Shown here piece after piece: positions 14,514 to 59,913 of a stretch of 63,769 bases of DNA (within the stretch, counting starts at the first letter, position 1; each line of letters opens with the position of its first letter). The notes under the pieces were generated by a model. That model saw nothing but the letters and a program-made list of their open reading frames with translations. It ran no database searches and was not told where the DNA came from. The DNA is from a bacterium (lineage in GTDB: Bacteria; Patescibacteriota; Dojkabacteria; B142; OLB20): NCBI GenBank assembly GCA_037138855.1, contig JBAXHO010000002.1, positions 1 to 63,769 on the forward strand, in the 5' to 3' direction. The translations under genes and the position numbers were made by a program.

Positions 14514-14541
14514 GATACGTGATACATGATACTTGATACTA
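14514..14541 (+). repeat. GATAC-heptamer tandem array (4 units)
   Basis: GATACGT GATACAT GATACTT GATACTA, ending 6 nt from the pyrD stop codon. Extra spaced GATAC words occur at 14463-14499. Confidence 0.9.
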
Positions 14542-14546
14542 TCCAT

Positions 14547-15659
14547 TCATTTCCCCGCTTTCACTCCAATTGCTTCGCTAATATTTTTATAACCGTCTTG
14601 CTTTAATAATTTCACCAAACCTTTATTGATTTGACCGATTAATTGCGGACCTTCAAAAATCATACCGGTAATGAGTTGTACCAATGTAGCTCCCAGTTTG
14701 ATTTTTTCATAAGCATCCTCTGCAGAAAAAATTCCACCAACGCCAATTATTATCAATTTTTTTCCAAATTGTTTATATGTTTTTTCAATTAATTTATTGC
14801 CGAGTTTCCAGGTAGGCTTACCACTGATGCCACCTTTCATCTCTTCTGTTACTTTATCTTTTGAAGAAATATTGCTGCGATCTTTATTTAAATTTCCAAT
14901 AATCACTCCTGTGACCTCATATCTCACTGCTACTTTCAACAATTGAGCAATCCGATTCCAACTGAGATTAATTGGCATTTTGATAAAAAGCGGACGGGCA
15001 GATTTGATTTCCCGGATTTTTTTCAATAATGCATCAAGCTTTTCCGGAGTAGTAAAAGGCTCTCCGCCAAAAGTATTGGGACAGGAAATATTTAAAGTAT
15101 AGAAATCACCTAAATTTTTTTCATTTAGTAATTTATATGAATTAAAATAATCCTCGATACCTTGATCAATTGTACAAGTTTCAGGAGAATTAGTTTTGGC
15201 TATGGAAATACTGAGAGGAATGTTTGTTTTACCATGTTTTTCCAAATTTTCAGAAATTTTCTTGGCACCAATATTTTTCAAGCCATAATTGACAATGATT
15301 CCTCGAGAATTGGGTAATCGTATCAACCTTGGCTTGGCATTACCAGCATAAGAAAACCAGGTAATTGAACCGATTTGATTAAAACCGAAACCCACTTCCG
15401 GTAGGATATCAATTAGATTGGCATCTTTATCAAATCCTTCGGATAAGCCTACAGGATTTTTAAAAGTAATACCGGCCACCTCTTGCTCCAGCATGGGATT
15501 ACGATAGCGAAAAAACAACCGGGTGAAAAATCTAGTAATTGCAAATTTCCCCAGTATATTACCAATTTTTATAAAACTATCATGTACATCTTCAGGATCA
15601 CGTTTAAAAAGAATTTTTTTTAAGAAATTTTGATAAACCCAGGCAATTAAACTTCGCAT
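14547..15659 (-). CDS. pyrD: dihydroorotate dehydrogenase (quinone), class 2
   Basis: N-terminal extension, GLSEGFDKD, NISCPNT, GVGGI motifs. 370 aa. Confidence 0.92.
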   Translation of the reverse strand: MRSLIAWVYQNFLKKILFKRDPEDVHDSFIKIGNILGKFAITRFFTRLFFRYRNPMLEQEVAGITFKNPVGLSEGFDKDANLIDILPEVGFGFNQIGSITWFSYAGNAKPRLIRLPNSRGIIVNYGLKNIGAKKISENLEKHGKTNIPLSISIAKTNSPETCTIDQGIEDYFNSYKLLNEKNLGDFYTLNISCPNTFGGEPFTTPEKLDALLKKIREIKSARPLFIKMPINLSWNRIAQLLKVAVRYEVTGVIIGNLNKDRSNISSKDKVTEEMKGGISGKPTWKLGNKLIEKTYKQFGKKLIIIGVGGIFSAEDAYEKIKLGATLVQLITGMIFEGPQLIGQINKGLVKLLKQDGYKNISEAIGVKAGK

Positions 15660-15763
15660 CAGTATTTACTCAGTTGAATTAATATTGGTAAGCTGAATTT
15701 TACCTTGATTGCGAAAAATTAACAAGGATTCGAGATTCGGATTCGAGATTCACTTCTTGCCCT

Positions 15764-15865
15764 AATTTGCTATAATAAACGTGTTAATCAGAATCCGGAT
15801 TCCAGTTTCTCTTTTTACTACTTGACACATGATACTTGATACATGATACATGATACTTGATACTA
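15764..15865 (+). repeat. promoter/leader cassette, upstream copy
   Basis: AATTTGCTATAATAAA..ATCAG..TTCCAGTTTCTCTTTTTACTACTT followed by 6 GATAC heptamers. About 80% identical to 22157-22265, with a 24-nt perfect core (15800-15823 = 22193-22216). Confidence 0.85.
15768..15776 (+). promoter_or_regulatory. extended -10 promoter TGCTATAAT
   Basis: TGnTATAAT about 130 nt upstream of the GTG start at 15909. The same nonamer occurs at 22161 and 47834. Confidence 0.5.
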
Positions 15866-15908
15866 ATTTAAATTCCAGTTTTCAATTTTCCTTGCTATAC
15901 TGATTATA

Positions 15909-18900
15909 GTGAAAGAAAAACGCACAATAAAATTACTGTACCCAGGTATGATAATTTTGACATTAGTAATGTTTTTTTTGGTATGGGGAAATATTCTGAC
16001 TAAGAACTCAATCAAAGAGCTTCAGACAGGTAACTACCTTAAACAATACGTCACAGAAGAAAAATTGTTGCAATACGAACCTTATGATATCGCACTCCAA
16101 TATAGCGACGGGAAAAAGGAAAGTGCCCGAATTATCAATGCTACCATTGATTCCAGTAATCTGATTGGTGGCTTGGAATTTGAAACAAAATCTGGAAAAA
16201 CATTGATCCTAAATACTTATCACTCAGTGGTTACCCTCTCCGAATCCAATGTGCAATCCATTACCCTGACTGAACTGGCAGACTATGAACCAGCCAATAG
16301 AAGTCTTGCCGGGATAAAATTGCAATTAAAAACAATTACAAGCGTAGAACTTGCTGATGGTAGTATAGTCACTAGTAAACTTGCTGATGCCACGATCACT
16401 GGTGGTAAGATTCAGACTGGAGTAATTGAAACTAGTCATCTTAATAATGGTATAGTCACTTCAATAAAATTTGCCGATGGTACACTCACTACTACCAAGA
16501 TTCTTAATGGGACAATTCAAGGAGAGGACTTGGCTGATCAAACGATCACAACAGATAAATTAGCAGATAATGCCGTAACTGCTGACAAAATTGAAAATGG
16601 CACAATTAATAATCCAGATTTAGCAGACGAAAGTATCAATGATGCAAAAGTAGTAACCGGTGCAAATATCGATTGGAGTAAAATCAGTAAAATTGGTTCC
16701 AGTATTGCTGATCTGACAAACCGTAATTCTACTGATCTTGCGTTAGCTGATTTAGGAAACTTTTTTACAACATCCAATATCGAAGGTGCTTTGGCCGAGC
16801 TGGCAGTAGCTGAAGCCAGTATTACCAATGATCATTTACGAGTGGATGCTTCCAATGGACCTGTATCTGGTACACTCATTCTAAAAAATCTCAATGACGC
16901 ACCAGAATTAGTGATCAAGGATAAAGTCGGTCAGACAGCCAATCTACAGGAATGGCAAGATAATAATGGAAATATTTTGAATGTAATTGATTACAATGGT
17001 AATCTCGGCGTCGGGACATCGACAACAGCTAACTATAATGTATTTGTAGCCGGCAGCGGCAAAGTGACTGGAAGATTTTCCGCACCGGAAATGGATCGCT
17101 GGCTCCAAGTTCCTGATTTAAATCGCAATATTACAACAAAACCTTTGACAATAAATACCGGTGGAATTCCTAGAGGATTAGCTTTTGATGGTAGTTATCT
17201 CTGGACGGCAAATGATGTAATTAATACAATTTCCAAAATCGATGTCAATACTGGACAAATTGTCGCTACATTATCTGACCCTGCGATGTCAGGTCCGCAT
17301 ACAGCATTATTCGATGGCACTTATATCTGGATGCTTTGTTGGAACAGTACTCTTGTGAAAGTTGATATTAATAAAAATATAATCCTTGGCGTTTATAACT
17401 ATAACAATTTCGCGGGCACTGCTTTAGCTTATGATGGAAGATATATCTGGGCTTCAGCAAGTAATAATAATATTTACAAAATTGATCCAGAAACTGTAGC
17501 CATTGTCGCTACAGTAAATAATCCGGGACATGGTTGGGGTTATGCTACTTTTGATGGAAAATATCTCTGGAGTATCGATGGAATTGGAACTGTAACCAAG
17601 CTTGATATAGATACAAATACAATTGCTGGTTATTTTTATGTTGGAAACGGCTTATTAGGAATTGCTTATGATGGTACTAATATCTGGGTAGCCAATGGTA
17701 GTACATATACTTATTCAAAAATTGATTCTAAAAGTGGAGCAGTTTTAGCCGATATTCCTGCAAATGCTAGTTGGCCACTTGGAATGACTTTCGATGGTAC
17801 TTATGTTTGGGTAGCAAATTTTGGTGGTAATATTTCAGCGATTGACCCCAACACCAATACAGTAGTTCAAACAATTGGGAGCTTTGGCAATCCTCACCAA
17901 ATCTTATTTGACGGTCAAGCAATCTGGGTTTCCAACTCCAATGCAGGTGCTGTGAGTAAATATAATGTTGCTACTTCTACATCCACTAGTTTAACGAACC
18001 GAAATGAGTTCTATGTTGGTCAGCAAAAAACAACCGCAGTATTAGGTGTGGCGAACTCTGAAAACTTTAATGATGTCATTACAAATTATAATGGTTCCTT
18101 AGAATCAGTCAGTGCTGAGGCGAGTACGTCTGGGGGTACAGCATTTGACTTACTACAAAATATCAACTCATATTTGTATGTAATGCGTAAAACACCGTTT
18201 CAATCAGTTTATTTCAATCTTCAGACAAAAGCAGTTGGCCTAACTCTAGCTGTAGAATATTGGAATGGCAGTACCTGGATCAACCAGACTTTTAGTGATA
18301 ATACAACGGATCTAAGCAATAATGGTACATTAGTATTATCATCGGTACCTTCAAATTGGCTGTATTCGACTGTCAATGGCACCACTGGATATTTTCTAAG
18401 AATTAGGACGGTTACAAATCCTTCGACAATTTCAGCTGCATATGCAGTGTTACCAAGTGACCGTGATGCATTGTATGTGAATGCTCAGCTTTATGACCCT
18501 TATCCAGCATTTTTTGTGAGTAAGGATAGTTTAATTGGAATTGGAACAGCCAATCCTAAAGCACAATTTGAGGTTAATGCTGTAGTGGATTTGACTCAAA
18601 CGCTAATCAAAGCTAATGCTACCCAGACAGCAAATCTCACTGAGTGGCAAGATAATTCAGCAGCTGTTCTCGCATCAATCAATAAAGATGGTGGGATAGT
18701 TCTAAATGAAAATGGAGTTGGAACAAATATTCGCTTTGAGGGCGATAATAATCAGAATTCATTTATTATTGCAGGAGTGTCAGATAAAATCGGAATTGGA
18801 ACAAACGTAGCCAAAGCTACACTTGATGTGGATGGCTTTATTCGTTTGAAAAATAATAATGCTGCCCCAGCAATTTGCACTGCAAGCAATGAAAGCTCAA

Positions 18901-18986
18901 TTGCTATTACTTCTGGTTACGCAATCTGTATTTGCAATGGTAGCGCCTGGGTTCAGCTAAAAGATGGTATAGCATGTACTTGGTAA
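15909..18986 (+). CDS. large membrane-anchored surface protein, paralogue 1
   Basis: N-terminal TM helix; run of ~11-residue repeats (LADxxITxxKIxxGTI); 7 blades of FDGxYIW(V/T)AN-type YVTN-like beta-propeller; two TANL(Q/T)EWQD motifs; C-terminal CxCxNG..C tail. Confidence 0.6.
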   Translation: MKEKRTIKLLYPGMIILTLVMFFLVWGNILTKNSIKELQTGNYLKQYVTEEKLLQYEPYDIALQYSDGKKESARIINATIDSSNLIGGLEFETKSGKTLILNTYHSVVTLSESNVQSITLTELADYEPANRSLAGIKLQLKTITSVELADGSIVTSKLADATITGGKIQTGVIETSHLNNGIVTSIKFADGTLTTTKILNGTIQGEDLADQTITTDKLADNAVTADKIENGTINNPDLADESINDAKVVTGANIDWSKISKIGSSIADLTNRNSTDLALADLGNFFTTSNIEGALAELAVAEASITNDHLRVDASNGPVSGTLILKNLNDAPELVIKDKVGQTANLQEWQDNNGNILNVIDYNGNLGVGTSTTANYNVFVAGSGKVTGRFSAPEMDRWLQVPDLNRNITTKPLTINTGGIPRGLAFDGSYLWTANDVINTISKIDVNTGQIVATLSDPAMSGPHTALFDGTYIWMLCWNSTLVKVDINKNIILGVYNYNNFAGTALAYDGRYIWASASNNNIYKIDPETVAIVATVNNPGHGWGYATFDGKYLWSIDGIGTVTKLDIDTNTIAGYFYVGNGLLGIAYDGTNIWVANGSTYTYSKIDSKSGAVLADIPANASWPLGMTFDGTYVWVANFGGNISAIDPNTNTVVQTIGSFGNPHQILFDGQAIWVSNSNAGAVSKYNVATSTSTSLTNRNEFYVGQQKTTAVLGVANSENFNDVITNYNGSLESVSAEASTSGGTAFDLLQNINSYLYVMRKTPFQSVYFNLQTKAVGLTLAVEYWNGSTWINQTFSDNTTDLSNNGTLVLSSVPSNWLYSTVNGTTGYFLRIRTVTNPSTISAAYAVLPSDRDALYVNAQLYDPYPAFFVSKDSLIGIGTANPKAQFEVNAVVDLTQTLIKANATQTANLTEWQDNSAAVLASINKDGGIVLNENGVGTNIRFEGDNNQNSFIIAGVSDKIGIGTNVAKATLDVDGFIRLKNNNAAPAICTASNESSIAITSGYAICICNGSAWVQLKDGIACTW

Positions 18987-19010: not shown

Positions 19011-22000
19011 ATGAATAATATTGTGAAAACCGAAAAGCAAAAATGGCAAATTTTCACTGGAAGAGTGTTACTTGTGATTTGCTCTATTTTAACTTTATGG
19101 CTTGTTTGGCAAGTTCTAGCAACAAATCGCTCGATTAAAGAATTAAAAAATGGCGATTATTTAAAGACATATATTGATGAAGAATTGTTAGCAGAATTAG
19201 CGCCTTATGATATTGAAGTACTTCCAGAAACAGGAAAAAAAGAATATGCCAAAATTATTAATGCCACTATAACAGAAGGTAATGTAATTAGTGCATTGGA
19301 GCTAGAGCTGGAAGATGGAAAGACGCTTACTGTGAATACATTTAAACAAACGAATATTTTAACCGAAGCTAATGTAGAAGAGATCAGTTTAACCGAATTG
19401 TCTGAATATGAGCCAGCAGAGCGAAGTATCAGTGGGATCAGGTTAAAATTAAAAACTATTTCCAGTGAAGAACTGGGCGATGGTAGTGTCATTACGAGTA
19501 AGCTGGCCAATGCTAGTATCAGTGGTGGCAAAATCCAAACAGGAGTAATAGAAACCAGTCATTTAAAAAATGGAATTGTAACAGAAGTTAAAATTGCAGA
19601 TGGAGCAGTTACAACAACGAAGATTTTAAATGGCACTATTTTGAGAGAAGATTTGGCTGATCAAATAGTTACGAACGAGAAATTGGCTGATAATGCTGTA
19701 ACCGGAGATAAAATAGTTAATGGCACAATTGAAAATCAGGATTTAGCAGATGGCAGCATTAATAATGCAAAAGTAGCGGATGATGCGAATATAGACTGGA
19801 ATAAAATTAGTAAAATTGGATCGAGTATTGCCGATTTGACTAGTAAGAACTCTAGTGATGTCTCGATTACTGATTACGGTAATTATTTTGTCGCTACTAA
19901 TGTCGAAGATGCACTTACAGAATTAGCCAGAAGTGAATATCTTAAAGTGGATGCCTCCAATGGCCCGGTTACTGGTACTTTAACTATGCAAAATGTTACG
20001 GATGCTCAGGAGCTGATTGTCAAAGCGAAAACTGGACAAACAGCCAATCTTCAAGAATGGCAGGATAGCAGTGGTACAGTTTTGAATGCAGTTGATAAAA
20101 GTGGAAATTTAGCAATTGGTACGAATACAACATCAGATTACAAAGCGTATGTGTCAGGTAGTGAAAAAGTTACCGGAAGATTTACAGCTCGTAATATTGA
20201 TCGTTGGTTTATGGTACCAGAACTTTATCGCACGATGACTGTCAGACCTTTATCCGTCACTGTTGGGGGGACTCCACGAGGTATGACATTTGATGGTAAT
20301 AGTATCTGGGTGGCGACAGGAAATGATGTAAAAAAGATTGATGTCAATAGTGGGCAGATTGTTGCTACGATAACTGATGCGACATTCAGTACTACATACA
20401 TGACTTTATTCGATGGCAATTATTTGTGGGTAACGAACTGGAATGGCAATCTTGTCAAAATCGATATAATGACAAATCTTGTTTTAGCTTCATATCATAT
20501 TACCACTAGCGGTGGTGGTATCGGTGGTATTGGTTATGATGGTAGTAATCTTTGGGTGGCTGACATTAATTCAGACGGTTCTTGTGTTTCCAATTCCAGC
20601 GTATATAAGATCAATCCTGCGGATGGTTCTATAGTTGCAACTGTAACTGTCGGCACCTGCCCTAGTTATTTTGCCTTTGGCAGTTCTTATTTATATGTAT
20701 CCAACAGTCTATCCAATAATATCAGTTTAATTAGTATTTCTTCTAATTCAGAGATTGTTCGAAGACCAGTTGGCCAAAATCCACAGGGAATGGCTTTCGA
20801 TGGCTCAAATCTCTGGGTTGCCAACTCCGGCTCCGGAACTTATACAAAACTGAGTAGTACTTTATCAGTTTATATGGATATTCCAGCCGGTGGTGATAAT
20901 CCTCATGGAATGGTCTATGATGGCAAAAATGTCTGGGCTGCCAATGGAAATAATAGTCTTTCTGTAATAAATCCTTTAACCAATGCGATTATTCAAACTA
21001 TTGACAGTCTTGGTACTCCTCAACAAATTATTTTTGATGGACAGGCAATTTGGGTTGGAAATTCTGGATCTGGACAAGTGACAAAATATAATAATACTGC
21101 CTCCTCAGGAACGACTACAACCATGCGAAATGTTTTTTATATTGGTGGAGCGACTGGTTCAGGGATGCTTAATGTTGCCAGCCCTGATTATTTTTATGAT
21201 GTAATTCTTGATAATAGTGGTGTCCTGAGCTCAGTGGCAGGTGAAGCTAGAAATTCAGGTGGTACTCCATTTGAGTTTCTAAAAACTACAAATTCATATC
21301 TCTATGTAATGCGAAAAGTATCATTCGGTACAATTTATTTTAATTTACAAACTAAAGGATCTGGACTAACACTGGCAGCAGAATACTGGAACGGCACCGC
21401 CTGGACTGCTTTGACAATTACAGATGGTACCACAGGTTTATCAAACAATGGCTCAATCACTTTTTCCAATCTTGCTGCTAACTGGGCATATACAACTGTA
21501 AATGGACAAGCGGGATATTTTGTGCGAATTAAAACCACTTCTATCCAGACTACTGCGCCCAAGGCCTATACAGTAGTACCTTCCAGCCGTAATGCCTTAT
21601 CAGTTTATGGTCAATACCTTGATAATTATCCGGCATTTTCTGTAAATAGAGATGGGTTGGTTAGTATTGGTACCTCCAGTCCTACCGCACAATTCCAGAT
21701 TAATGGGGTGATAGATATTCCCCAGTCAATTATCAAAGGTTTTTCAGCTCAGACAGCAAACCTTACTGAGTGGCAAAATAGTAGTGGTGTAGTTTTAGCT
21801 TCAATCAATAAAGATGGTGGCATGGTTCTTAACGAAAATAGTTTAGATACTGATATTCGCTTTGAAAGTGATAATAATCAAAATATGTTCTTCTTGGATG
21901 CTTCAGCAGATAAAATTGGGATTGGAACTGCTACTCCACAGGCGACGCTGGATATCAATGGCTTTTTACGCTTAAAAAATAACAATGCCGAGCCAATAGC

Positions 22001-22112
22001 TTGTTCAGTAGAAGTAGAAAGTGCTTTAGCAATTAGTTCCAGCTATGTAATGTGTATCTGTAATGGCACCAGCTGGCTAAATGTCCTAGATGGATCTGCT
22101 TGCGTATGGTAA
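19011..22112 (+). CDS. large membrane-anchored surface protein, paralogue 2
   Basis: Same architecture as 15909-18986, 24 nt downstream. Long shared peptides (GGKIQTGVIETSHL, KISKIGSSIADLT, GQTANLQEWQD, NSYLYVMRK, FDGQAIWV). The propeller blades are the most divergent part. Confidence 0.6.
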   Translation: MNNIVKTEKQKWQIFTGRVLLVICSILTLWLVWQVLATNRSIKELKNGDYLKTYIDEELLAELAPYDIEVLPETGKKEYAKIINATITEGNVISALELELEDGKTLTVNTFKQTNILTEANVEEISLTELSEYEPAERSISGIRLKLKTISSEELGDGSVITSKLANASISGGKIQTGVIETSHLKNGIVTEVKIADGAVTTTKILNGTILREDLADQIVTNEKLADNAVTGDKIVNGTIENQDLADGSINNAKVADDANIDWNKISKIGSSIADLTSKNSSDVSITDYGNYFVATNVEDALTELARSEYLKVDASNGPVTGTLTMQNVTDAQELIVKAKTGQTANLQEWQDSSGTVLNAVDKSGNLAIGTNTTSDYKAYVSGSEKVTGRFTARNIDRWFMVPELYRTMTVRPLSVTVGGTPRGMTFDGNSIWVATGNDVKKIDVNSGQIVATITDATFSTTYMTLFDGNYLWVTNWNGNLVKIDIMTNLVLASYHITTSGGGIGGIGYDGSNLWVADINSDGSCVSNSSVYKINPADGSIVATVTVGTCPSYFAFGSSYLYVSNSLSNNISLISISSNSEIVRRPVGQNPQGMAFDGSNLWVANSGSGTYTKLSSTLSVYMDIPAGGDNPHGMVYDGKNVWAANGNNSLSVINPLTNAIIQTIDSLGTPQQIIFDGQAIWVGNSGSGQVTKYNNTASSGTTTTMRNVFYIGGATGSGMLNVASPDYFYDVILDNSGVLSSVAGEARNSGGTPFEFLKTTNSYLYVMRKVSFGTIYFNLQTKGSGLTLAAEYWNGTAWTALTITDGTTGLSNNGSITFSNLAANWAYTTVNGQAGYFVRIKTTSIQTTAPKAYTVVPSSRNALSVYGQYLDNYPAFSVNRDGLVSIGTSSPTAQFQINGVIDIPQSIIKGFSAQTANLTEWQNSSGVVLASINKDGGMVLNENSLDTDIRFESDNNQNMFFLDASADKIGIGTATPQATLDINGFLRLKNNNAEPIACSVEVESALAISSSYVMCICNGTSWLNVLDGSACVW

Positions 22113-22156
22113 CAACAATACCTCCAAAGAGAAATTCCCTGTTCGCTTCCTGACAA

Positions 22157-22265
22157 AATTTGCTATAATAAAATGAATTATCAGGATTCGACTTCCAGTT
22201 TCTCTTTTTACTACTTAATACATGATACTTGATACTTGATACTTAATACATGATACTTGATACTT
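22157..22265 (+). repeat. promoter/leader cassette, downstream copy
   Basis: Same module as 15764-15865, with 7 heptamers (AATACAT GATACTT x3 AATACAT GATACTT x2). Ends 22 nt before the ATG at 22287. Confidence 0.85.
22161..22169 (+). promoter_or_regulatory. extended -10 promoter TGCTATAAT
   Basis: Identical nonamer and flanks (AATTTGCTATAATAAA) to 15764-15779. Confidence 0.5.
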
Positions 22266-23499: not shown

Positions 23500-24633
23500 T
23501 TAGCGTATCGCCCCGACAACAGCCTCCAGAATTCCTTTTTCAAATATTCCTGGAATAATTCTTTCTGCAGTTGGCTCAGTAACAATCTTTGCTAAAGCAA
23601 TCGCAGCATTAATTTGCATCTCGATAGTGATATTTTTAATGTGTCGATCCAGAGCACCACGGAAAATTCCTGGAAATACTAAGGCATTATTTACCTGATT
23701 GGAAAAATCTGATCTGCCTGTCGCTACCACAAGCGCACCATTGGCTAGAGCCAGATCCGGCATAATTTCCGGGACAGGATTGGCAAGCGCAAAAACAATT
23801 GCTTGAGCATTCATTGATTTTATCATCGCTTCCGTCACAATTCCTGGAGCTGAAACGCCAATGAAAATATCTTTTCCTGAGATCGCTGAAGCTAAATCAC
23901 CCGGGAGATCTTCCTGATTAGTCAATTCTGCCAGCATTTGCTTATGCGGGTCCAAATCAGCTCAAGATTTGGCAATAATTCCTTTACTATCTACCATCAT
24001 AAAATTTACAAATCCTGCTTTTAACAAAATTCTCATAATAGCTGTACCAGCTGCACCTGCACCGGAGATAACAATTTTTACTTTTTCCTTTTGTTTATTG
24101 ACAACCTTGAGAGCATTAAACAAACCAGCTAATACCACTACGGCTGTCCCCCACTGATCATCATGAACGACAGGAATATCCAGACGTTTTTTTAAAGTTT
24201 CCTCAATATAAAAGCATTTCGGGGCAGCAATATCTTCCAGATTGATTCCGCCAAAGCTAGGGGCAATCATTTCCACTGCTTTAATAATTTCATCCGGATC
24301 CTGAGTATTTAAGACAATCGGAATGGAATCAATATTAGCAAAATGCTTGAATAACAAAGCTTTGCCTTCCATGACAGGATATGCGCCATAAGGACCGATA
24401 TTACCAAGACCAAGAACTGCTGATCCATCTGAGATTACAGCCACGGAATTGCCCTTGAAAGTATATTGACCAGTTTCCTCCGGATGAAGAGCAAGATAAC
24501 GACTTACTTCAGCCACACCTGGTGTGTAAGTCCAGGACAAATCATGTTTATCTTTTAAGGGAAATTTTAGTTGTGTAGTAATTTTACCTTGATGCTCCAG
24601 ATGTTTAGCCAGTGATTCCTGATAGATGTCCAT
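23500..24633 (-). pseudogene. NAD(P)-dependent malic enzyme interrupted by one in-frame TGA (pseudogene, split gene or read-through)
   Basis: The two track ORFs (24633-23962 and 23955-23500) are in the same frame, separated by TGA at 23964-23962. Conserved motifs are intact on both sides (GNIGPYGAYPVMEGK; ALANPVPEI; ATGRSDFSNQVNNALVFPGIFRGALD). Confidence 0.85.
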
Positions 24634-24736: not shown

Positions 24737-24785
24737 GATACATGATACTTGATACTTGATACTTGATACTTGATACTTGATACTA
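24737..24785 (+). repeat. GATAC-heptamer tandem array (7 units)
   Basis: GATACAT, GATACTT x5, GATACTA. Lies 97 nt upstream of the capA-like start. Confidence 0.9.
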
Positions 24786-26417: not shown

Positions 26418-26428
26418 TGAGGAGGAAA

Positions 26429-26459
26429 CGGTGATCGGTAATCGGTTGTCGGTGATCGG
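26429..26459 (+). repeat. CGGTGAN-heptamer array (4.4 units)
   Basis: CGGTGAT CGGTAAT CGGTTGT CGGTGAT CGG, starting 12 nt after the capA-like stop. Confidence 0.85.
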
Positions 26460-26589
26460 AATTGAAATTAATATATTGTTAAATTCCGGACAGTGCTGTA
26501 GGCTGAAGTCCGTAGACAATAGACGGTAGACGGAAAATCTGGAAGAATTATGCAATTTGGAAATTGCAAATTGGATAAATCGTATTAAT

Positions 26590-26702
26590 TAGTATATCGA
26601 TAGATTCCGGACAGAAACTATTCTAAACTATCGCTAAGAATAGCTAACTTCCGGAATGACGTTTGGGCTTTTTGACACTTTTAAAATGCCGTTAAGACCT
26701 AG
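26590..26702. repeat. ~115-nt structured intergenic repeat, copy B
   Basis: Aligns to 14342-14456. The outer stem ATTCCGGA/TCCGGAAT is conserved. The inner stem CTATTCT/AGAATAG carries a compensatory A:T to T:A swap relative to copy A. Confidence 0.7.
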
Positions 26703-26755
26703 ATACTAAATAGTAGCTACTAGCTACTATTTTTACTACTTGATACTTATAGCAC

Positions 26756-26775
26756 GGGTTGCAGATCTGCAACCC
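26756..26775. repeat. perfect 20-nt palindrome GGGTTGCAGATCTGCAACCC
   Basis: Self-complementary, with conserved flanks AGCAC...CTCC. Other copies at 46415, 59857 and 61481 (1 mismatch). Confidence 0.9.
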
Positions 26776-26796
26776 CTCCTATTTAATACTGATCTT

Positions 26797-28757: not shown

Positions 28758-30590
28758 TTAAAGTAAGGAAAAATAAAAAATTGTCCCCTTATTGAGCTTA
28801 GATTCAAACCAGATTTTTCCACCATGTCCTTCAATAATTGCTTTGGAAATATAGAGTCCGAGACCAGTTCCTTCAGTTTGTGTTTTCACTGCATTATCAG
28901 CCCGGAAAAATTTTTTAAACATATCAGAGTAACTTTTTTTGGGAATTCCCAGTCCTTGATCTTTTACTGAAAATATATGTTCTTTACCTTTCAAATGATA
29001 GGAGATTTCAATCTTTGTACCATTTGGTGAATATTTAATAGCATTACTAACAAGATTTTTTAAAACCTGGGCAATTTTTTCAGGATCAATATGTAATCGT
29101 AAAAACTTCGGAAACGACTCATCAACAATAATTTGAATCTTTTTTTGATCAGCAATAATCTTCTGATCTTTGATTGTTTCTTGTACTAAAGGAATAAAAT
29201 CAGTAATTACCTTGCTAATACTAAACTTTCTGCCAACTTCAATCCTGGAAACATTTAGTAAATCTTCTACTAGCTTTATCATCCGGTTATTACTTTCTTC
29301 AATATTATTAAAAAATTCACGCTGTTCTGCTGAAAACTTACCAAGACCACTATCTTTTAGTAATTCCAAATACCAGCGAATTCCAGTCAAAGGTGTCCGT
29401 AATTGATGTGAAGCCACTGAGACAAATTCCGATTTCATACGATCCACTTCCCTTTCTTTTGTAATATCACGAAAAACAACGACACAACCTATTACTGCTC
29501 CTTCAGAATTGATTATTGGTGAAGAAGAATCTCCTACCGGCATTTCTACCAGATCTTTTTTAATTAATAACGTACCAGGATTAATTTGCGAAACTACTCC
29601 CTTATCAAAAACGTTATCCAAAAATCGATAATCACTTTCTCTCGTCTTTTCATTAATAAACTGCAATTTTGTCCGGAATTTTTTCTGCATTAACTCTTCA
29701 AGTTGAAATCCAGTAAGCATCTCCACAGACTCATTCGCCATAACTACCCGTTCATTGATATCCAATACCACTACTCCATCACCAATACTATGTAAAATTG
29801 TATTTAATCTTTCTTTTTCTTCAAAAACCTTATATTTTTCTTCTTCTACATCTTCAAAAACATTTAGTATAGCTGCTTCAGCATTTTCTAAAGTACTATT
29901 TTTTATTTCCAGTTCTTTGAAATGCTTATCTAATTCTTTTTCTGATTGCTGCAATTTAGAAACTTGCAATGACAAATTCCGATTGATCAACTGTAAATCA
30001 TCTTTTTGTGCAGCAATTTTCAACTGTGCTCCTTCATTTATACGTTGATAAGCAATCACTAATAACGAAACTCCAGAAAAACTAAGAATATAGATTAAGT
30101 TTTGAATATTAGTATAAGGTAATTCAATAAATCCTAAATTTCTTAACAATCCTAAAATAATAACAATCATAAAATATAAAAAGGTATAATAAACACCATA
30201 AGCCACACCTACTAATAAATAGACTATTACTGGAAAAAAGAAATTAAGATAATAACCAGTATGATCAAATCCCCCAACGATCGTATTATTAACAAGCATA
30301 ATTAAGGTAACTAATACACCCAAATGCATCGGAAAAGAAGAACGTGGAGCTTTCCACTGCAGATAAAATGCCACTAAAATACATAATGACAAGGTCAATT
30401 CCAAAAAAGCAGCAAAATAATCCCGAACCAAGAAGTTCGTGACTGAGAATGAAAAAATAATTACTAAACCAAACAAACCAATAATCTGTATCGTGAAGCG
30501 TCGATAATATTCAGAATTACCAACTTCTAATAAGTGTTTTTCAGCAATTTTTTTAATTAAATTATTCAGCATTTTTATCCTGATTTTCAA
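28758..30590 (-). CDS. multi-pass membrane sensor histidine kinase (TM region, coiled coil, PAS, HisKA, HATPase)
   Basis: H-box SHQLRTPLT, N-box LVSNAIKYS, G-boxes DQGLGI and GTGLGL. About 6 N-terminal TM helices. Confidence 0.9.
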   Translation of the reverse strand: MKIRIKMLNNLIKKIAEKHLLEVGNSEYYRRFTIQIIGLFGLVIIFSFSVTNFLVRDYFAAFLELTLSLCILVAFYLQWKAPRSSFPMHLGVLVTLIMLVNNTIVGGFDHTGYYLNFFFPVIVYLLVGVAYGVYYTFLYFMIVIILGLLRNLGFIELPYTNIQNLIYILSFSGVSLLVIAYQRINEGAQLKIAAQKDDLQLINRNLSLQVSKLQQSEKELDKHFKELEIKNSTLENAEAAILNVFEDVEEEKYKVFEEKERLNTILHSIGDGVVVLDINERVVMANESVEMLTGFQLEELMQKKFRTKLQFINEKTRESDYRFLDNVFDKGVVSQINPGTLLIKKDLVEMPVGDSSSPIINSEGAVIGCVVVFRDITKEREVDRMKSEFVSVASHQLRTPLTGIRWYLELLKDSGLGKFSAEQREFFNNIEESNNRMIKLVEDLLNVSRIEVGRKFSISKVITDFIPLVQETIKDQKIIADQKKIQIIVDESFPKFLRLHIDPEKIAQVLKNLVSNAIKYSPNGTKIEISYHLKGKEHIFSVKDQGLGIPKKSYSDMFKKFFRADNAVKTQTEGTGLGLYISKAIIEGHGGKIWFESKLNKGTIFYFSLL

Positions 30591-45393: not shown

Positions 45394-46182
45394 TCAAGCC
45401 CCATTATATTCACCAGGATAAAACTTAACAATTAATTCATAACTTTGAGGAAAATCCGGATCTTTCAAGCTGATCGTTTCTGTTAATATTACATCACCCG
45501 CCCTGGATTCCACTAACCTTAAAGTAGTTTCATCTTCCCAAATAATTTGACTAATATTGACATCACTAGTAATTGTCTTAGTATACCCTCCTTGCCACAC
45601 AATATCCTCCTCATTTTTATACTCCGGTGAAATTTTCCCAAATTCAATAAAATATTCATTTCCAATTGCTCTCCCGGGAAAGACATTTTGACTTACAATT
45701 ACAGCAAATTGTTGATTGGGTGATTTCGAAATAATTAGATCAGATCCTTTAATTTCAATAAAATTGACTGTCAAACCATCAACTTGTACCGACTTTGGTG
45801 GTCTACTGGAGAAATCATATTGATCAAAACCAAAATAATAATAAATATTTACTTTTTGCTCCGCTTCCAACCAGTCCACATTTTCAGCGATCACCTCAAT
45901 ATGGCCATAAAACAAAAACTCTTTTGAATTGTGCTTATTTTTATCAATCAAATAAAATGAACTATGATCATTATCATCAAGCGGAGTAATTTGTGTTTCA
46001 ATCTTAAGCTGATAACGACCAGAATTTGATGCAATCACTTCTGAATCATAATTATTGAAAACACTAGCAAAAAATAAAGTTATTACTCCACAACAAAAAA
46101 GCAACCCACATAATAAAATTGTGCCGATCAAGAAAAGCAACATGAGAATCTGCTTAACTTTTTTTTGTTTGCTCTGCATCAA
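45394..46182 (-). CDS. membrane-anchored hypothetical protein
   Basis: 262 aa with an N-terminal TM helix (ILMLLFLIGTILLCGLLFCCGVITLFF). No motif recognised. Confidence 0.45.
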   Translation of the reverse strand: MMQSKQKKVKQILMLLFLIGTILLCGLLFCCGVITLFFASVFNNYDSEVIASNSGRYQLKIETQITPLDDNDHSSFYLIDKNKHNSKEFLFYGHIEVIAENVDWLEAEQKVNIYYYFGFDQYDFSSRPPKSVQVDGLTVNFIEIKGSDLIISKSPNQQFAVIVSQNVFPGRAIGNEYFIEFGKISPEYKNEEDIVWQGGYTKTITSDVNISQIIWEDETTLRLVESRAGDVILTETISLKDPDFPQSYELIVKFYPGEYNGA

Positions 46183-46286
46183 TAATTTTAAAATATTTAT
46201 GAATATTTTTTTTCCTTAACACATCTAATCAATAAACGCCCAAGGCTAGAAGGCATTACAAAGCCAGAATTGTTAAAAAGTACTCA

Positions 46287-46328
46287 TTGGAGACGACGAC
46301 GTCTCCCCTATAGGATGTTCAACCAATC
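46287..46328 (+). repeat. 42-nt hairpin-containing repeat TTGGAGACGACGACGTCTCCCCTATAGGATGTTCAACCAATC
   Basis: Stem GGAGACG/CGTCTCC. Second copy at 59782-59823 with 2 substitutions. Both lie upstream of a GGGTTGCAG palindrome. Confidence 0.85.
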
Positions 46329-46377
46329 AACTACAATAATTTCCTGTTTTCTTTATTTTCATTAAACAAAACAAAAT

Positions 46378-46398
46378 TTTTTGTTCACTACATTTTCT
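46378..46398 (+). repeat. 21-nt perfect direct repeat, right copy
   Basis: Identical to 45332-45352. Confidence 0.85.
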
Positions 46399-46414
46399 AC
46401 TTGCTACCCAGCAC

Positions 46415-46434
46415 GGGTTGCAGATCTGCAACCC
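46415..46434. repeat. perfect 20-nt palindrome GGGTTGCAGATCTGCAACCC
   Basis: With the flanks TTGCTACCCAGCAC...CTCC, this makes a 38-nt string identical to 59843-59880. Lies 5 nt 3' of the GIY-YIG stop. Confidence 0.9.
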
Positions 46435-46439
46435 CTCCA

Positions 46440-46691
46440 TCATGATACTCCCCCCAATCCAAGCCTCGCGATCTTTTCCGTCCTGCTCCAGCTTTTTACC
46501 TCAAGTTCACGTTTCAGGGCAGTAGATTTGTCACTCTGCTCTTCCTGATAAATTAATTTCACCGGCAACCGGGAACGCACATATTTGGAGCCTTTGCCAC
46601 TTTGATGCACTGCCAGCCGGTTCTTAATATCGTCAGTGATTCCTGTGTAAAGAGAGTTATCAGCACAGAGTAAGAGATAAAGGTAGTACAT
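46440..46691 (-). CDS. GIY-YIG nuclease-family protein (UPF0213-like)
   Basis: YYLYLLLCADNSLYTGITDDIKNRLAVHQSG..GSKYV...ALKRELEVKSW. ATG at 46691; the track start at 46718 lies in the heptamer array. Confidence 0.85.
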   Translation of the reverse strand: MYYLYLLLCADNSLYTGITDDIKNRLAVHQSGKGSKYVRSRLPVKLIYQEEQSDKSTALKRELEVKSWSRTEKIARLGLGGVS

Positions 46692-46710: not shown

Positions 46711-46770
46711 TGTATCATGTATCATGTATCATGTATCATGTATCATGTATCATGTATCATGTATCATGTA
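46711..46770 (-). repeat. GATAC-heptamer array, reverse orientation (8 perfect units)
   Basis: (TGTATCA)x8 plus TGTA. Lies between the promoter at 46776-46803 and the GIY-YIG start, so it is predicted to be transcribed as (UGAUACA)8. Confidence 0.95.
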
Positions 46771-47652: not shown

Positions 47653-47708
47653 GATACTAGATACTAGATACTAGATACTAGATACTAGATACTAGATACT
47701 AGATACTT
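47653..47708 (+). repeat. GATAC-heptamer array (8 units)
   Basis: (GATACTA)x7 plus GATACTT, about 125 nt upstream of the TGCTATAAT promoter of the PfkB gene. Confidence 0.95.
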
Positions 47709-47780: not shown

Positions 47781-47810
47781 CAAATTGCAAATTTCAAATT
47801 TCAAATTGCA
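47781..47810 (+). repeat. CAAATTG-heptamer array (4 units)
   Basis: CAAATTG CAAATTT CAAATTT CAAATTG CA. A related GGAAATTGCAAATTGG is at about 26559-26574. Confidence 0.85.
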
Positions 47811-50253: not shown

Positions 50254-50409
50254 ATTTGTATATGTAGATGGTAGGTTGCGAAGTCTACCCTATATTTTTT
50301 GCTTACGAAATTCGTTATTCGTCTTCAGATTTCAGATTCCGGATTCCAGTTTTCAGTTTGATTATTTCATTAATCAAATCATTTTAAGCTCGATTGACTT
50401 AATAACTTT

Positions 50410-51882: not shown

Positions 51883-51891
51883 GGTTAAGAA

Positions 51892-51922
51892 CGGTGTCCG
51901 GTGAGCGGTGAACGGTGACCGG
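51892..51922 (+). repeat. CGGTGAN-heptamer array (4.4 units)
   Basis: CGGTGTC CGGTGAG CGGTGAA CGGTGAC CGG, 10 nt upstream of the minus-strand 5'-nucleotidase start. Confidence 0.85.
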
Positions 51923-52040: not shown

Positions 52041-52054
52041 GATACTTGATACTT
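52041..52054 (+). repeat. GATAC-heptamer array (2 units)
   Basis: GATACTT GATACTT, preceded by CAGATTCCAGATTCCAGTTT (a variant of the leader cassette). Confidence 0.7.
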
Positions 52055-52986: not shown

Positions 52987-54204
52987 TTAAATAGCTGGTA
53001 GGATAATCTTAAATTCAGTTTTGCCAGGTTTACTTTGCAAAGTTAATTGCCCCTGATGTTCAGCAATAATTTTTTGAGTAATGGCTAAACCTAATCCAAA
53101 ACCACCAGTATCGCGACTACGGGAATGATCGATGCGATAAAAACGTTCAAAAATTTTACTTTGTTCTCTCTCAGGAATACCTGGACCATTATCACTGACA
53201 ACAATTGTAATTTGTTGTTCGGTAGCAGTTAATTTTACTTCAATAATTGGACTCTTTACCTGATGCGAATATTTTATTGCATTTTCTATCAAATTAGCAA
53301 TTGCTCGACCAAAACTAACTGATTCAATTTGATAAAAAATTGCTTTCTCTGGAAGATCAGTTTGCAATTTCACCTTTTTGAGCCAAAGGCTTACCAGCCT
53401 ATGGCTGGAACTTTTAGATAAATCTGTTAGAGAATCAACCACCTCATTAATCACAATCTTTAAGTCAATCTGTCTCTTTGGCAATGCTTCAGTTCTAGTT
53501 AAATCTAAAAAATATTCAGTCAATTGATTGACCCGTTTCACCCCTTCCAAAGCTTTGGCCACAGAAGCATGCATCTCAGCTTGCGATGCTGTCTGGTCAT
53601 CCAAAATCCCATCCAAATTAGCCTGAATAATCGTAAGAGGAGTTTTGAGTTCATGAGAAGCATTTTGGAGAAATTCTGCTTGTGCATCAAAAGCCTTTTT
53701 CAGTCTCAGCGACATCTTGTTGAAACTACTAATCAATTCTCCAATTTCATCTTCACTAAAAACCTCTAATTCCACACCCAAATCAGCGTCATTTAATAAA
53801 GCAATCTTTTTCTGCAGTATCCCCAATGGTGCTAAAAATTGCCCGGAGATATAATAACCTAGTACAAAACTGGTGATAAATACCGGAATTAATGCATAAA
53901 CACTGGCAAGTTGAATATTATGAAGATCCTGTCTGCGGATATCCCGAATTTTCTGACGTTGCTCTTCATTAAACATCATCTGAGGCGATATTTGCCCAGG
54001 CATCATCTCTTCATTAATGATCTGATTGGAATTATTTCGTAAATAATTTGGTTCAGCTTTAAAATACTGGTTCAGATAAAGATTCACTACCAGAACAAAA
54101 CTGGAAATAAAGATAAACATCAGGCCGGAATATATTAAGGTTAATTTGAACCTGATCGAACTGAAAATTTTTGTCAGTTTAACGGATAACATAACCTTTA
54201 CCAA
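52987..54204 (-). CDS. sensor histidine kinase (TM, HAMP, HisKA, HATPase)
   Basis: H-box SHELKTPLT, N-box ENAIKYS, DNGPGI, GGFGLGL. Confidence 0.9.
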   Translation of the reverse strand: MVKVMLSVKLTKIFSSIRFKLTLIYSGLMFIFISSFVLVVNLYLNQYFKAEPNYLRNNSNQIINEEMMPGQISPQMMFNEEQRQKIRDIRRQDLHNIQLASVYALIPVFITSFVLGYYISGQFLAPLGILQKKIALLNDADLGVELEVFSEDEIGELISSFNKMSLRLKKAFDAQAEFLQNASHELKTPLTIIQANLDGILDDQTASQAEMHASVAKALEGVKRVNQLTEYFLDLTRTEALPKRQIDLKIVINEVVDSLTDLSKSSSHRLVSLWLKKVKLQTDLPEKAIFYQIESVSFGRAIANLIENAIKYSHQVKSPIIEVKLTATEQQITIVVSDNGPGIPEREQSKIFERFYRIDHSRSRDTGGFGLGLAITQKIIAEHQGQLTLQSKPGKTEFKIILPAI

Positions 54205-55396: not shown

Positions 55397-55475
55397 GGAT
55401 AATTTAAATAATAAATAAAATAATAATTTATAATACAAAATTGGATGTGAAAAAGCGGTGAAGTGGATGGAGAAT

Positions 55476-55503
55476 CGGTGATCGGTCACCGGTGAGCGGT
55501 AAA
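55476..55503 (+). repeat. CGGTGAN-heptamer array (4 units)
   Basis: CGGTGAT CGGTCAC CGGTGAG CGGTAAA. Confidence 0.8.
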
Positions 55504-55769
55504 TGAAGATCGAATGACGAATTTCGAATTTCGGAAGAGGTACAAAGTAGAAGATCGGTAGATTCCGGACAGTAATATTTTCTAAACTAAAGTTAAGAGT
55601 TAGAAGTTAGTAGCTAAATAGCAGCTTACTGGAATCTCGGTAGATTACGCTTAGTACTGTAGTCGGAATACAGTAGACAGAAATTCGGGAATAATAAATG
55701 TCAAAACTAATAATCTATTCATTAACCTCCTATCTAATAGCTTTTAACTTCTAACTTTTAATTTTACTA

Positions 55770-55790
55770 GATACTAGATACCAAATACAC
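55770..55790 (+). repeat. degenerate GATAC-heptamer array (3 units)
   Basis: GATACTA GATACCA AATACAC, followed by TTTTCTACTTTCTACTTGCTACTTGATA words. Confidence 0.6.
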
Positions 55791-55837
55791 TTTTCTACTT
55801 TCTACTTGCTACTTGATATTTACTACTTACTTTCCCC

Positions 55838-56872: not shown

Positions 56873-57158
56873 ATTATTGAATAAGGAGTAAAAGAAATCA
56901 GAATAAATTGTTGTAATTATCTTTTTATTATATAGCAAAATATAATAAAAAGATAAAAGTTCCAGCCATAGGCTGGTAAGCCTTTGGCTTAAAAAGTTAT
57001 AAGCTAGAAATAAGAAGTAAAAAGAAATTAAAAAATAGTGAACAAAAAAAATTGTTCTGTTAGAATGTGAAAAAAGAAAGAAACTAGAATAAAAGAATCT
57101 AGGAATCTATGAATAAAAGAATTATCCTTTTCCAAGATTCAAAATTCGCCTACTGTGT

Positions 57159-59479: not shown

Positions 59480-59480
59480 A

Positions 59481-59714
59481 TTATTTCTTAAATATCAATT
59501 TACCTAAATAATAACTTAAAACCAAACCTATTAAAGCAGCTGTAAATGCAATTATCATCTCCACCATAATAAAATATCTTTCATATCCTTCTTCACAATA
59601 GCCATCATTACAAAAACTATATCCAACCAATGCCAGAAAACCAAAAAATAAAGATGTAACACAAGCGGTTAAAATAATACCGGATATCGATATTAACTTA
59701 ATTTTTTTGTTCAT
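59481..59714 (-). CDS. small two-TM membrane protein
   Basis: 77 aa, two hydrophobic helices flanking a CNDGYCEEGYERY loop. 1 nt upstream of the CPCC gene. Confidence 0.4.
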   Translation of the reverse strand: MNKKIKLISISGIILTACVTSLFFGFLALVGYSFCNDGYCEEGYERYFIMVEMIIAFTAALIGLVLSYYLGKLIFKK

Positions 59715-59781
59715 AAATTAATTATAACTTAAATTGATGGTTACGAAAATTTGTTATTTTATTAATAATACAAACTAATAG

Positions 59782-59823
59782 TTGGAGACGACGACGTCTC
59801 CCCTATACGATGTTCGACCAATC
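59782..59823 (+). repeat. 42-nt hairpin-containing repeat, second copy
   Basis: TTGGAGACGACGACGTCTCCCCTATACGATGTTCGACCAATC. Compare 46287-46328. Confidence 0.85.
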
Positions 59824-59856
59824 TCGAGATTTAATTTTCCGATTGCTACCCAGCAC

Positions 59857-59876
59857 GGGTTGCAGATCTGCAACCC
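59857..59876. repeat. perfect 20-nt palindrome GGGTTGCAGATCTGCAACCC
   Basis: With its flanks, identical to the 46401-46438 copy. Confidence 0.9.
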
Positions 59877-59885
59877 CTCCTACTT

Positions 59886-59913
59886 GATACATGATACCTG
59901 ATACATGATACTT
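59886..59913 (+). repeat. GATAC-heptamer array (4 units)
   Basis: GATACAT GATACCT GATACAT GATACTT, ending 6 nt from the NRAMP stop codon. Confidence 0.9.

Follow-up and report, generated by a model that had tools for sequence, protein, structure and literature searches.

In the survey of Mrazek et al. (2007), as far as it is summarized in later papers (PMC4679880, PMC4692102), heptanucleotide units were the most abundant long simple sequence repeats (LSSRs) and were distributed sporadically across taxa. Here, we describe tandem arrays of the heptamer GATACWW at 12 intergenic loci in a stretch of 63,769 nt, hereafter called the window (contig JBAXHO010000002.1 of assembly GCA_037138855.1, GTDB lineage Patescibacteriota; Dojkabacteria). 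Judged by the same summaries of that survey, the arrays share with LSSRs the head-to-tail 7-nt units, the length beyond chance, the occurrence in sporadic taxa, the dominance of heptamers among unit sizes, the intergenic bias of units whose length is not a multiple of three, and polymerase slippage as the proposed origin. They differ from the reported LSSRs in the host, a member of the Patescibacteria/Candidate Phyla Radiation (CPR), in the GATACWW unit, and in their very high density, with about 30 seven-periodic segments in 64 kb. A literature search found no report of simple sequence repeats or heptanucleotide LSSRs in Patescibacteria/CPR. The window arrays are probably heptanucleotide LSSRs that were seeded on dispersed intergenic modules and have been changed by slipped-strand mispairing.

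Heptamer repeats have been described or cited in Calothrix, other cyanobacteria, Beggiatoaceae, Bacteroidetes, and Xanthomonas, and the traits that recur in this literature are an intergenic bias, mixed families, 7-nt indels, proximity to one open reading frame (ORF), and an unknown function (PMC4679880, PMC4692102). The GGGAATC and GGGGA(C/T)T repeats of Xanthomonas and Nostoc are genome-specific and occupy many intergenic loci (Rehm et al., 2015; PMC4692102). Like them, the GATAC arrays lie much closer to one neighboring ORF than to the other regardless of ORF orientation, adjoin genes of all functional classes, vary in length between close relatives, and have no established function. However, the GGGAATC repeats are G-rich, form G-quadruplexes, and have a preferred array size of 4, whereas GATACWW contains no G-tract and cannot form such a structure; in addition, the former are closer to the ORF located 5' of the G-rich strand and the latter to the boundary on their 3' side. 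The TAACTGA arrays of marine Beggiatoaceae, some cyanobacteria, and Bacteroidetes are also intergenic (MacGregor, 2015; PMC4679880), and a role as a landing pad or regulator site in translation has been proposed for them. They resemble the window arrays in consisting of two to many contiguous heptamers, often in sense orientation just before start codons, in being mixed with other heptamer families, in showing 7-nt indels between strains, and in the contigs that end inside them. By our own reading of the sequences, both units contain stop codons, and at least three units close all three frames. The unit and the phylum are different, however, and most TAACTGA arrays of the Guaymas Beggiatoa are located a few nucleotides from a start codon, whereas half of the window arrays border on gene 3' ends, with reversed orientation. 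Assignment to the TAACTGA family was rejected, since no TAACTGA array was present in the output of Tandem Repeats Finder (TRF).

The short tandemly repeated repetitive (STRR) sequences are heptamers with the units CCCCAGT, TTGGTCA, and CAACAGT. As in the window, several tandem heptamer families are spread through the non-coding DNA of one genome; however, the units are unrelated and the hosts are heterocystous cyanobacteria. With a GATACWW unit and a host whose marker proteins match Patescibacteria and not cyanobacteria, the window arrays are not STRR sequences sensu stricto. Three tandemly repeated heptanucleotides are attributed to Calothrix PCC7601 in a citation by PMC4692102, and a Nostoc preprint reports that contiguous heptamers near start codons or promoters alter reporter expression (10.1101/2022.06.06.494920). 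Contiguous 7-bp repeats without spacers are also bound by identified proteins: the ribbon-helix-helix (RHH) protein ParB (omega) requires at least four contiguous heptads on pSM19035 (PMC9499535), and known regulators are recruited to TTTTGAT heptads at the ctxAB promoter of V. cholerae (10.1101/2021.05.14.444153). These arrays resemble those of the window in size (about 3–10 units), and their unit number matters for function. Whereas these sites are limited to one locus or a few and their binding protein has been identified, the window holds at least 12 chromosomal loci with no known binder; omega heptads mix direct and inverted copies, whereas each window array has a single orientation. Contiguous heptads are present in the window arrays, and no par or RHH gene was recognized in the window by Pfam scans.

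All 12 arrays listed in a preliminary description of the window were recovered by TRF and by direct reading, with unchanged coordinates and unit counts, at period 7 with 0% indels and 2 to 8.7 copies. Further GATAC units, missed in that description, were found at 14474-85 and 26738-44. The pattern GATACWWGATAC had 40 matches in the window, compared with 0.04 expected from 100 dinucleotide-preserving shuffles. When exact tandem runs were counted for periods 2–15, there were 11 at period 7, 5 at period 14, one of 10 nt at period 4, and zero at the remaining periods. An autocorrelation analysis of the window revealed a lag-7 identity of 0.378 in intergenic DNA, with further peaks at the harmonics 14 and 21; lags other than multiples of 7 gave about 0.29. 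In coding DNA, which displayed just the usual 3-periodicity, the lag-7 identity was 0.264. In total, 30 heptamer-periodic segments covered 1125 of the 7874 intergenic nt (~14%), while heptamer-periodic coding DNA amounted to 89 of ~55,900 nt (0.16%). The GATAC arrays are therefore one family within a general 7-nt intergenic periodicity that involves several heptamer families, and the original observation is both confirmed and broadened.

The view that the arrays belong to no nameable repeat class did not hold. They are heptanucleotide LSSRs: their contiguous units fall in the 1–11 nt class and have no spacer, they are longer and commoner than chance predicts, they are restricted to non-coding DNA, and they change by whole units (7 vs. 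8 and at least 16.9 vs. 8) between short-read assemblies. The repeat class is already known, and what appears to be new is the Patescibacteria/CPR host together with the unit GATAC(T/A/C)(T/A). The classes that had been excluded earlier were rightly excluded. Clustered regularly interspaced short palindromic repeats (CRISPR) have repeats of about 23–55 nt with unique spacers, and iterons have units of about 17–22 bp, whereas the window arrays consist of contiguous 7-nt units at 12 dispersed loci with no rep gene nearby. Repetitive extragenic palindromic (REP) sequences and bacterial interspersed mosaic elements do not fit either, given that the arrays are direct repeats whose GAUACUU leaders fold no better than shuffled sequences. 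Separate palindromic elements, such as the four copies of GGGTTGCAGATCTGCAACCC, adjoin some arrays. A known RNA family was also rejected as the identity of the arrays, since four tRNAs were the sole RNA families matched by Rfam at gathering thresholds.

Comparison of the loci demonstrated that several arrays are parts of larger modules present in more than one copy. The stretches 15749-15864 and 22142-22257 are 82% identical, and each contains a TGCTATAAT box, leader heptamers, and an array. A common module of ~160 nt with a long hairpin occurs at 14330-14545 and 26578-26745, with four GATAC units in the former and one in the latter, where a single GATACTT (26738-44) is the last heptamer. Likewise, 46260-46448 and 59755-59913 have two hairpins in common (GGAGACGACGACGTCTCC and GGGTTGCAGATCTGCAACCC), which are followed by one unit (at 46440, in the paralogous module 46392-46448) and four units (59886), respectively. 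On sequence grounds, the module pairs would fit a seed unit that was carried on the module and then expanded locally.

Whole-unit differences were also found between assemblies of the same organism. Same-organism contigs were obtained from the ENA assembly ERZ27300156 and the Logan run SRR7053653 via exact matches to window proteins; all assemblies compared are short-read and may share raw data. The contigs from both sources were base-identical to the window across tens of kilobases, with two exceptions. In the perfect 46711-70 array, the ENA contig k141_1154925 (L205) has 7 units instead of the 8 in the window, and over 3.86 kb this one 7-nt unit is the only difference at any aligned base. 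At 47653-707, L205 carries at least 16.9 GATACTA units, which extend to the contig end, compared with 7 + 1 units in the window; the adjacent ENA contig starts inside the same array. The Logan contigs end inside arrays at 22245, 41031, 46746, and 47682. Thus, the contingency-type length variation that had been suggested earlier was observed at two arrays. In genomes of this kind, short-read assemblies are interrupted by the arrays, which could also be used to tell strains apart. In a second CPR organism, found via PyrD, one 28-nt block (4 units) differs between two samples with 99.95% identical flanks. Its contigs (L162, 4383-5050, and L163, 1-305; JGI Ga0265296 and Ga0265292) carry (GAAATTA)n over ~260 bp and (GAAGACT)n over ~190 bp, next to which an inverted family, (AATCTTC)n, is located just upstream of an ATG.

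From the directly observed tandem structure, excess, intergenic restriction, whole-unit polymorphism, and unit differences between paralogous modules, we infer slippage as the mechanism. In the proposed sequence of events, a seed heptamer would ride on short intergenic modules, e.g., promoter-plus-leader or 3'-end hairpin modules, that are copied to several loci. Slipped-strand mispairing would then gain or lose whole 7-nt units, which would make perfect arrays hypervariable in the population, and older units would decay via point mutation. With a unit length not divisible by 3, arrays would persist only outside coding sequence, where they would pile up against gene boundaries. The resulting 7-nt steps in the length of 5' leaders, upstream regions, and 3' flanks would likely modulate the expression of neighboring genes.

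The hairpins of these modules were observed in further contexts. The perfect 20-nt palindrome GGGTTGCAGATCTGCAACCC occurs four times (26745-26779, 46404-46438, 59846-59880, and 61480-61514) with conserved flanks CACG...CTCC and one copy with G for C, usually directly past the 3' end of a minus-strand gene and beside GATAC units; it looks like a REP-like element or a 3'-end hairpin without a U-tract. The second conserved hairpin, GGAGACGACGACGTCTCC (46274-46328 and 59769-59823), is located ~60–120 nt from GGGTTGCAGATCTGCAACCC, and the two together constitute a module of ~120–190 nt in two copies, one of which has a 53-nt insertion. A small peptide encoded in this module was considered and rejected, as the insertion breaks any ORF common to both copies. 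The long hairpin of the other module is part of a repeated intergenic element of ~100 nt (AGATTCCGGACAG ... CTTCCGGAATGAC), whose full copies at 14338-14440 and 26586-26690 are 82% identical and whose partial copies lie at 26465-26494 and 55544-55601; this element may be of the kind of a miniature inverted-repeat transposable element, or a small RNA or terminator element. In addition, a 43-nt inverted repeat with 98% complementarity (53374-53416 and 56954-56996) brackets a four-gene segment of 3.5 kb. Each arm holds a terminator-like hairpin (CCAGCCTATGGCTGG), and the pair could act as terminators in common use or delimit a segment that is invertible or mobile.

Six arrays precede a start codon, as had been described earlier with an approximate range of 20–160 nt. 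The array 15824-15865 (plus strand; 6 units, the first being GACACAT) begins ~41 nt past the transcription start predicted for a TGCTATAAT promoter at 15768, and 43 nt separate its end from the start of an ORF for a surface protein of 1025 aa. The same spacing of ~41 nt lies between the transcription start predicted for a TGCTATAAT promoter at 22161 and array 22217-22265 (plus strand; 7 units, two of them AATACAT). This array ends 21 nt before the VKOR start (22287) and is identical in L207, and the Logan contig L208 starts inside it. Between a divergent malic-enzyme fragment and a CapA-like gene, array 24737-24785 (plus strand; 7 units, identical in L207) ends 96 nt before the CapA start, with a TGCCATAAT box, read by eye, downstream of the array. 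On the minus strand, array 38911-38938 (4 units, two with TATAC; identical in L123 and L124) is located ~68–95 nt past the predicted transcription start of a TGCTACAAT promoter (39021) and ends 42 nt before a MazG-like start. For the TGATACA array 46711-46770, also on the minus strand (8 perfect units, 8.7 by TRF), the beginning of the array roughly coincides with the transcription start predicted for a TTGACA-16-TACAAT promoter (46803-46776, minus strand), and 19 nt separate its end from the start of the GIY-YIG gene (46691). Finally, array 47653-47708 (plus strand; 7 GATACTA and 1 GATACTT, perfect) lies between a divergent zinc-ribbon gene and PfkB, 157 nt before the PfkB start.

The other six arrays are found at gene 3' ends. 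Array 14514-14541 (plus strand; 4 units, GATACGT/AT/TT/TA) is located 170 nt past the AhpC stop, ends 5 nt before the stop of minus-strand pyrD, and is identical in the ENA contig L122. Array 59886-59913 (plus strand; 4 units) has the GGGTTGCAGATCTGCAACCC hairpin directly on its 5' side and ends 5 nt before the minus-strand NRAMP stop. The GATACTT array 52041-52054 (plus strand; 2 units) follows CAGATTC and similar heptamers in the same register, with 9 nt between its end and the stop of a minus-strand DUF333 gene. For these three, the distances agree with the 6–10 nt given in the preliminary description. Array 41289-41316 (minus strand; 4 units, identical in L123) is situated between tRNA-Leu and tRNA-Pro and starts 9 nt past the 3' end of tRNA-Leu, with AAGTATC on the tRNA strand. 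In a convergent gap, 9 nt lie between the end of array 45364-45384 (plus strand; 3 units, identical in L205) and the stop of the minus-strand gene 45394-46182. The degenerate array 55770-55790 (plus strand; 3 units, GATACTA/GATACCA/AATACAC) is continued in 7-nt register by TTTCTAC/TTGCTAC/TTGATAT to 55828, and the heptamer stretch 55770-55828 reaches ~9 nt before the stop of a minus-strand LPG-synthase-like gene. No array lies in a credible coding sequence, as had been stated: a TTG-start ORF at 22257 overlaps array 22217-65 by 9 nt, and this overlap is removed by an independent gene call that starts VKOR at 22287.

Read in the GATAC direction, all 12 arrays are closer to the gene boundary on their 3' side, with two near-ties. 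Six start 5–10 nt past a gene 3' end with AAGTATC on the strand of that gene (pyrD, ORF 45394-46182, DUF333, LPG-synthase-like, NRAMP, and tRNA-Leu), and four (15824, 22217, 38911, and 46711) lie in sense orientation between a predicted strong promoter and the start codon, the promoters being TGCTAnAAT at 15768, 22161, and 39021 (minus strand) and TTGACA-16-TACAAT at 46803-46776. Promoters and transcript ends in the window are predictions throughout. In divergent intergenic regions, a sense orientation upstream of the start is automatic; in the six co-directional gaps, 2 arrays were sense and 4 antisense. A strand rule relative to transcription was therefore rejected, and the lack of a consistent orientation speaks against an exclusively sense-RNA function. 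For GATACNN arrays from many phyla, present in at least 118 stretches of DNA, the downstream boundary was the closer one for 37 of 56 arrays vs. 19 (p = 0.02), and, among the matches listed, an approach to within 15 nt of a start codon was almost confined to the sense orientation (9 of 26 vs. 1 of 29), both counts being based on a crude ORF model.

Several simple functions were considered for the arrays and rejected. The unit junction reads TTGATA or TTGACA, which by eye resembles a -35 hexamer (e.g., TTGATA-18-CATTAT at 45378), but just three arrays have a plausible -10 box at 16–18 nt, and promoter-like matches were not enriched over shuffles (72 vs. 67.7). Terminator-like hairpins in the 44–62 kb region were not enriched either (13 found vs. 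11.2 expected). GAUACUU-type leaders folded no better than shuffles (z = +0.4 to +1.2), and only the GAUACAU x8 array self-pairs, weakly (z = -2.55), which speaks against hairpin formation. GATACTT, GATACAT, and GATACTA each hold TGA or TAG; stops in all three frames as a general rationale were nevertheless rejected, as by inspection neither strand of the TCGAATC family contains a stop. Intergenic promoters at 2589 (minus), 6331 (minus), 15768, 15893, 22161, 37860 (minus), 39021 (minus), and 47834 have an extended -10 box in common, TGCTA(T/C)A(A/C)T. With only 16–37 nt between several of these boxes and the start codon, the leaders there may be very short or lacking altogether.

Several observations weigh against slippage from dispersed seeds as a complete account. 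The dispersal of modules explains just part of the recurrence of the core, and random slippage alone gives no reason for the same 5-nt core at 12 loci or for the 3'-side boundary lean of all 12 arrays. Across 61 units, positions 2–5 (ATAC) are almost invariant, while position 6 is T in 35, A in 21, C in 4, and G in 1; of the extra states within arrays, 16 of 22 fall at unit positions 6–7 (p = 2e-5). The imperfect arrays 14514, 22217, 24737, 38911, and 41289 are identical in every assembly covering them, and the unit differences seen elsewhere could in part stem from the treatment of a heterogeneous population by assemblers. An added constraint, perhaps a core-recognizing factor, is suggested by the invariant ATAC core together with the polar placement, and both features are compatible with the protein-binding platform idea as well as with the transcript-boundary idea. 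In a DNA-level platform, a factor would read the ATAC core once per heptad and polymerize along contiguous units, so that the arrays act as operators, roadblocks, or nucleoid-organizing sites whose occupancy is set by unit number, with omega on pSM19035 and the ctxAB regulators as precedents. Consistent with such a platform are the variable positions 6–7 beside the constant core, the occurrence of both orientations relative to transcription in the informative gaps, the position of several arrays near predicted promoters, the -35-like junction, and the length of most arrays (at least 4 units, the number of contiguous heptads needed for full activity on pSM19035; PMC9499535). We nevertheless regard it as unlikely: no candidate binding protein was found, several unrelated heptamer families that share intergenic regions would each need their own factor, relatives at ~60% PyrD identity lack the arrays, and units are co-oriented within each array, whereas pSM19035 sites mix orientations. 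The position relative to the predicted promoter is also inconsistent, i.e., upstream, at the start, at ~+41 or ~+68, or past stops. A role in RNA appears similarly doubtful. Here, (GAUACUU)n in 5' leaders would serve translation as a landing pad free of structure or as a site for a regulator, (AAGUAUC)n past stops or the tRNA 3' end would mark or protect transcript 3' ends, and the two perfectly complementary forms could pair in trans. The four sense arrays between promoter and start codon, the six arrays at 3' ends, the unstructured leaders, the lack of terminator-like hairpins beyond expectation, and the nearly exclusive sense orientation of arrays close to start codons across phyla point in this direction; however, the promoters and transcript ends are predicted, arrays 24737 and 47653 have their best promoter match downstream, the cross-phylum statistics come from a crude ORF caller, and the opposite orientations would demand two functions for one sequence. 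Either role would be compatible with an origin by slippage.

Still less probable is a combined reading in which the GATAC heptads are sites for a dedicated factor of this CPR lineage that reads the ATAC core in each heptad, and in which the arrays together mark or couple the boundaries of transcripts across the genome. If true, this could operate through a protein roadblock, through 3'-end protection, or through trans pairing of leaders with 3' tails, with slippage tuning the unit number, and it would fit the lack of intrinsic-terminator enrichment in the 44–62 kb region. Phase variation, in which gain or loss of units would turn specific genes such as those for large surface proteins on or off, is very unlikely, even though two arrays are polymorphic by whole units and one lies upstream of the 1025-aa surface-protein gene. 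The arrays are hypervariable as phase-variation loci are, but none is inside an ORF or in a predicted -35/-10 spacer, where a 7-nt step would act as a switch; moreover, the polymorphic arrays flank zinc-ribbon, GIY-YIG, and PfkB genes and not surface genes, and the neighbors are mostly housekeeping genes (pyrD, tRNAs, and NRAMP). Rehm et al. likewise concluded against phase variation for the Xanthomonas repeats (PMC4692102). That the arrays or their lengths were made by the assembler is hardly credible. Contigs from two assemblers do terminate within the longest arrays, and the assemblies differ in unit counts; however, the seven arrays that ENA contigs span with both flanks (14514, 22217, 24737, 38911, 41289, 45364, and 46711) are all present there, and only 46711 differs, by one whole unit. 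With lengths of 14–60 nt, the arrays are below the k-mer size of 141 nt to which the 'k141' contig names point, and the degenerate units and in-register flanking heptamers are unlike assembler loops.

The distribution of the arrays is lineage-specific and sporadic. No GATAC arrays were present at 80 CPR-type loci (742 kb) around PyrD homologs with 44–62% identity, so conservation of the arrays in relatives was rejected; heptamer-periodic DNA amounted to 0.26% of these loci, and 7-periodicity was slight except in the L162/L163 organism and a few weak cases. By a strict test, contigs L119–L121 had no GATAC arrays. One of them, L120 (GCA_027002475.1, PyrD ~61% identical), contains degenerate ACAAAnn runs facing nnTTTGT (11164-11488 and 14297-14483), and these inverted 7-periodic blocks could pair with each other. 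The scan that retrieved the GATACNN arrays of many phyla was anchored on GATAC and says nothing on a preference for GATAC over other cores. Dense families of one unit recur in distant phyla, since an unrelated Bacteroidota contig (L086, 632-2808, MAG DC_SW_03) carries four GATACTT/GATACCT arrays within 4.3 kb and a Desulfococcaceae contig carries ten heptamer arrays in 7 kb (see also L008 and L074). Heptamers are the commonest long simple sequence repeat in bacteria, and the reason for a 7-nt unit still has no accepted answer. The phenomenon now extends to Patescibacteria/CPR, whose genomes are small and normally compact, which makes a repeat content of ~14% in intergenic DNA harder to dismiss as junk. 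The contig is a clean case, with one dominant unit that has an invariant 4–5 nt core, gene-end polarity, paralogous modules at 1 vs. 4 units, and length heterogeneity within the population.

The further heptamer families of the window comprise TCGAATC, CGGTGAN, CTAGATA/TAGCTAC, CAAATTG, TTCAGAT/TCCAGAT, and AAGTTAN. Intergenic regions in 7-nt register are chains of heptamer blocks that grade into each other, such as ...ATTCCAG TTTCTCT TTTTACT ACTTGAT ACTTGAT.... A CTAGATA/CCAGCTA block that includes GATACTAGATAC (14465-14500, plus strand) lies in register upstream of the 14514 array, and its paralogous module at ~26699-26745 closes with one GATACTT. The perfect TCGAATC x7.7 array (41002-41055, plus strand) starts 2 nt past the stop of ORF 39245-40999, and Logan contig L124 ends inside it. 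A CGGTGAT-type x4.4 array (26426-26459, plus strand) starts 8 nt past the CapA stop, with related blocks at 51889-51922, 55474-55500, and 61360-61402. CAAATTG x4.3 (47781-47810, plus strand) precedes the TGCTATAAT box of PfkB (47834) by ~24 nt. TTCAGAT/TCCGGAT x4.7 (family D12) occurs at 50324-50356 (plus strand), and modules of this type lead into GATAC arrays at 15788, 22181, and 52006.

The contig has a G+C content of ~35%. PyrD of the window has at most 63% identity to any entry in the protein collection, with Dojkabacteria, Woesebacteria, Magasanikbacteria, and WWE3 as the named best matches, and TruB has at most 47%, with Nomurabacteria, Paceibacteria, and Levybacteria as the named matches. 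Because the best named matches of both proteins are all Patescibacteria at low identity, the protein comparisons place the contig in a divergent, uncultured Patescibacteria/CPR bacterium, and an origin from cyanobacteria or Beggiatoaceae was rejected. The gene names used earlier for pyrD, VKOR, CapA, MazG, PfkB, NRAMP, and DUF333 were supported by Pfam (DHO_dh for pyrD, VKOR, PGA_cap/CapA, MazG, PfkB, Nramp, and DUF333), and the GIY-YIG gene proved to be real (46440-46691, minus strand, 83 aa, PF01541, independent gene call).

Additional features of the gene content were noted. The tandem paralogous ORFs 15909-18986 and 19011-22112 (~1030 aa, with internal repeats and no strong Pfam match) share 70% DNA identity across a 300-nt stretch and likely encode surface proteins. 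The malic-enzyme gene is split into two adjacent minus-strand ORFs (23500-23955 and 23962-24633), with an N-terminal domain of 223 aa and a Malic_M fragment of 151 aa. The split was also called in the ENA assembly and is therefore no error of the present assembly; the gene may be a pseudogene or a programmed split. On the minus strand at 28758-33271, three successive overlapping ORFs with the domains dCache-HAMP, GAF, and PAS-HisKA-HATPase look like either fragments of a single large sensor kinase or an array of three sensor genes. At 3513-5585, a C-5 cytosine methyltransferase gene precedes a gene for a TdeIII-family endonuclease, and the two constitute a type II restriction-modification pair.

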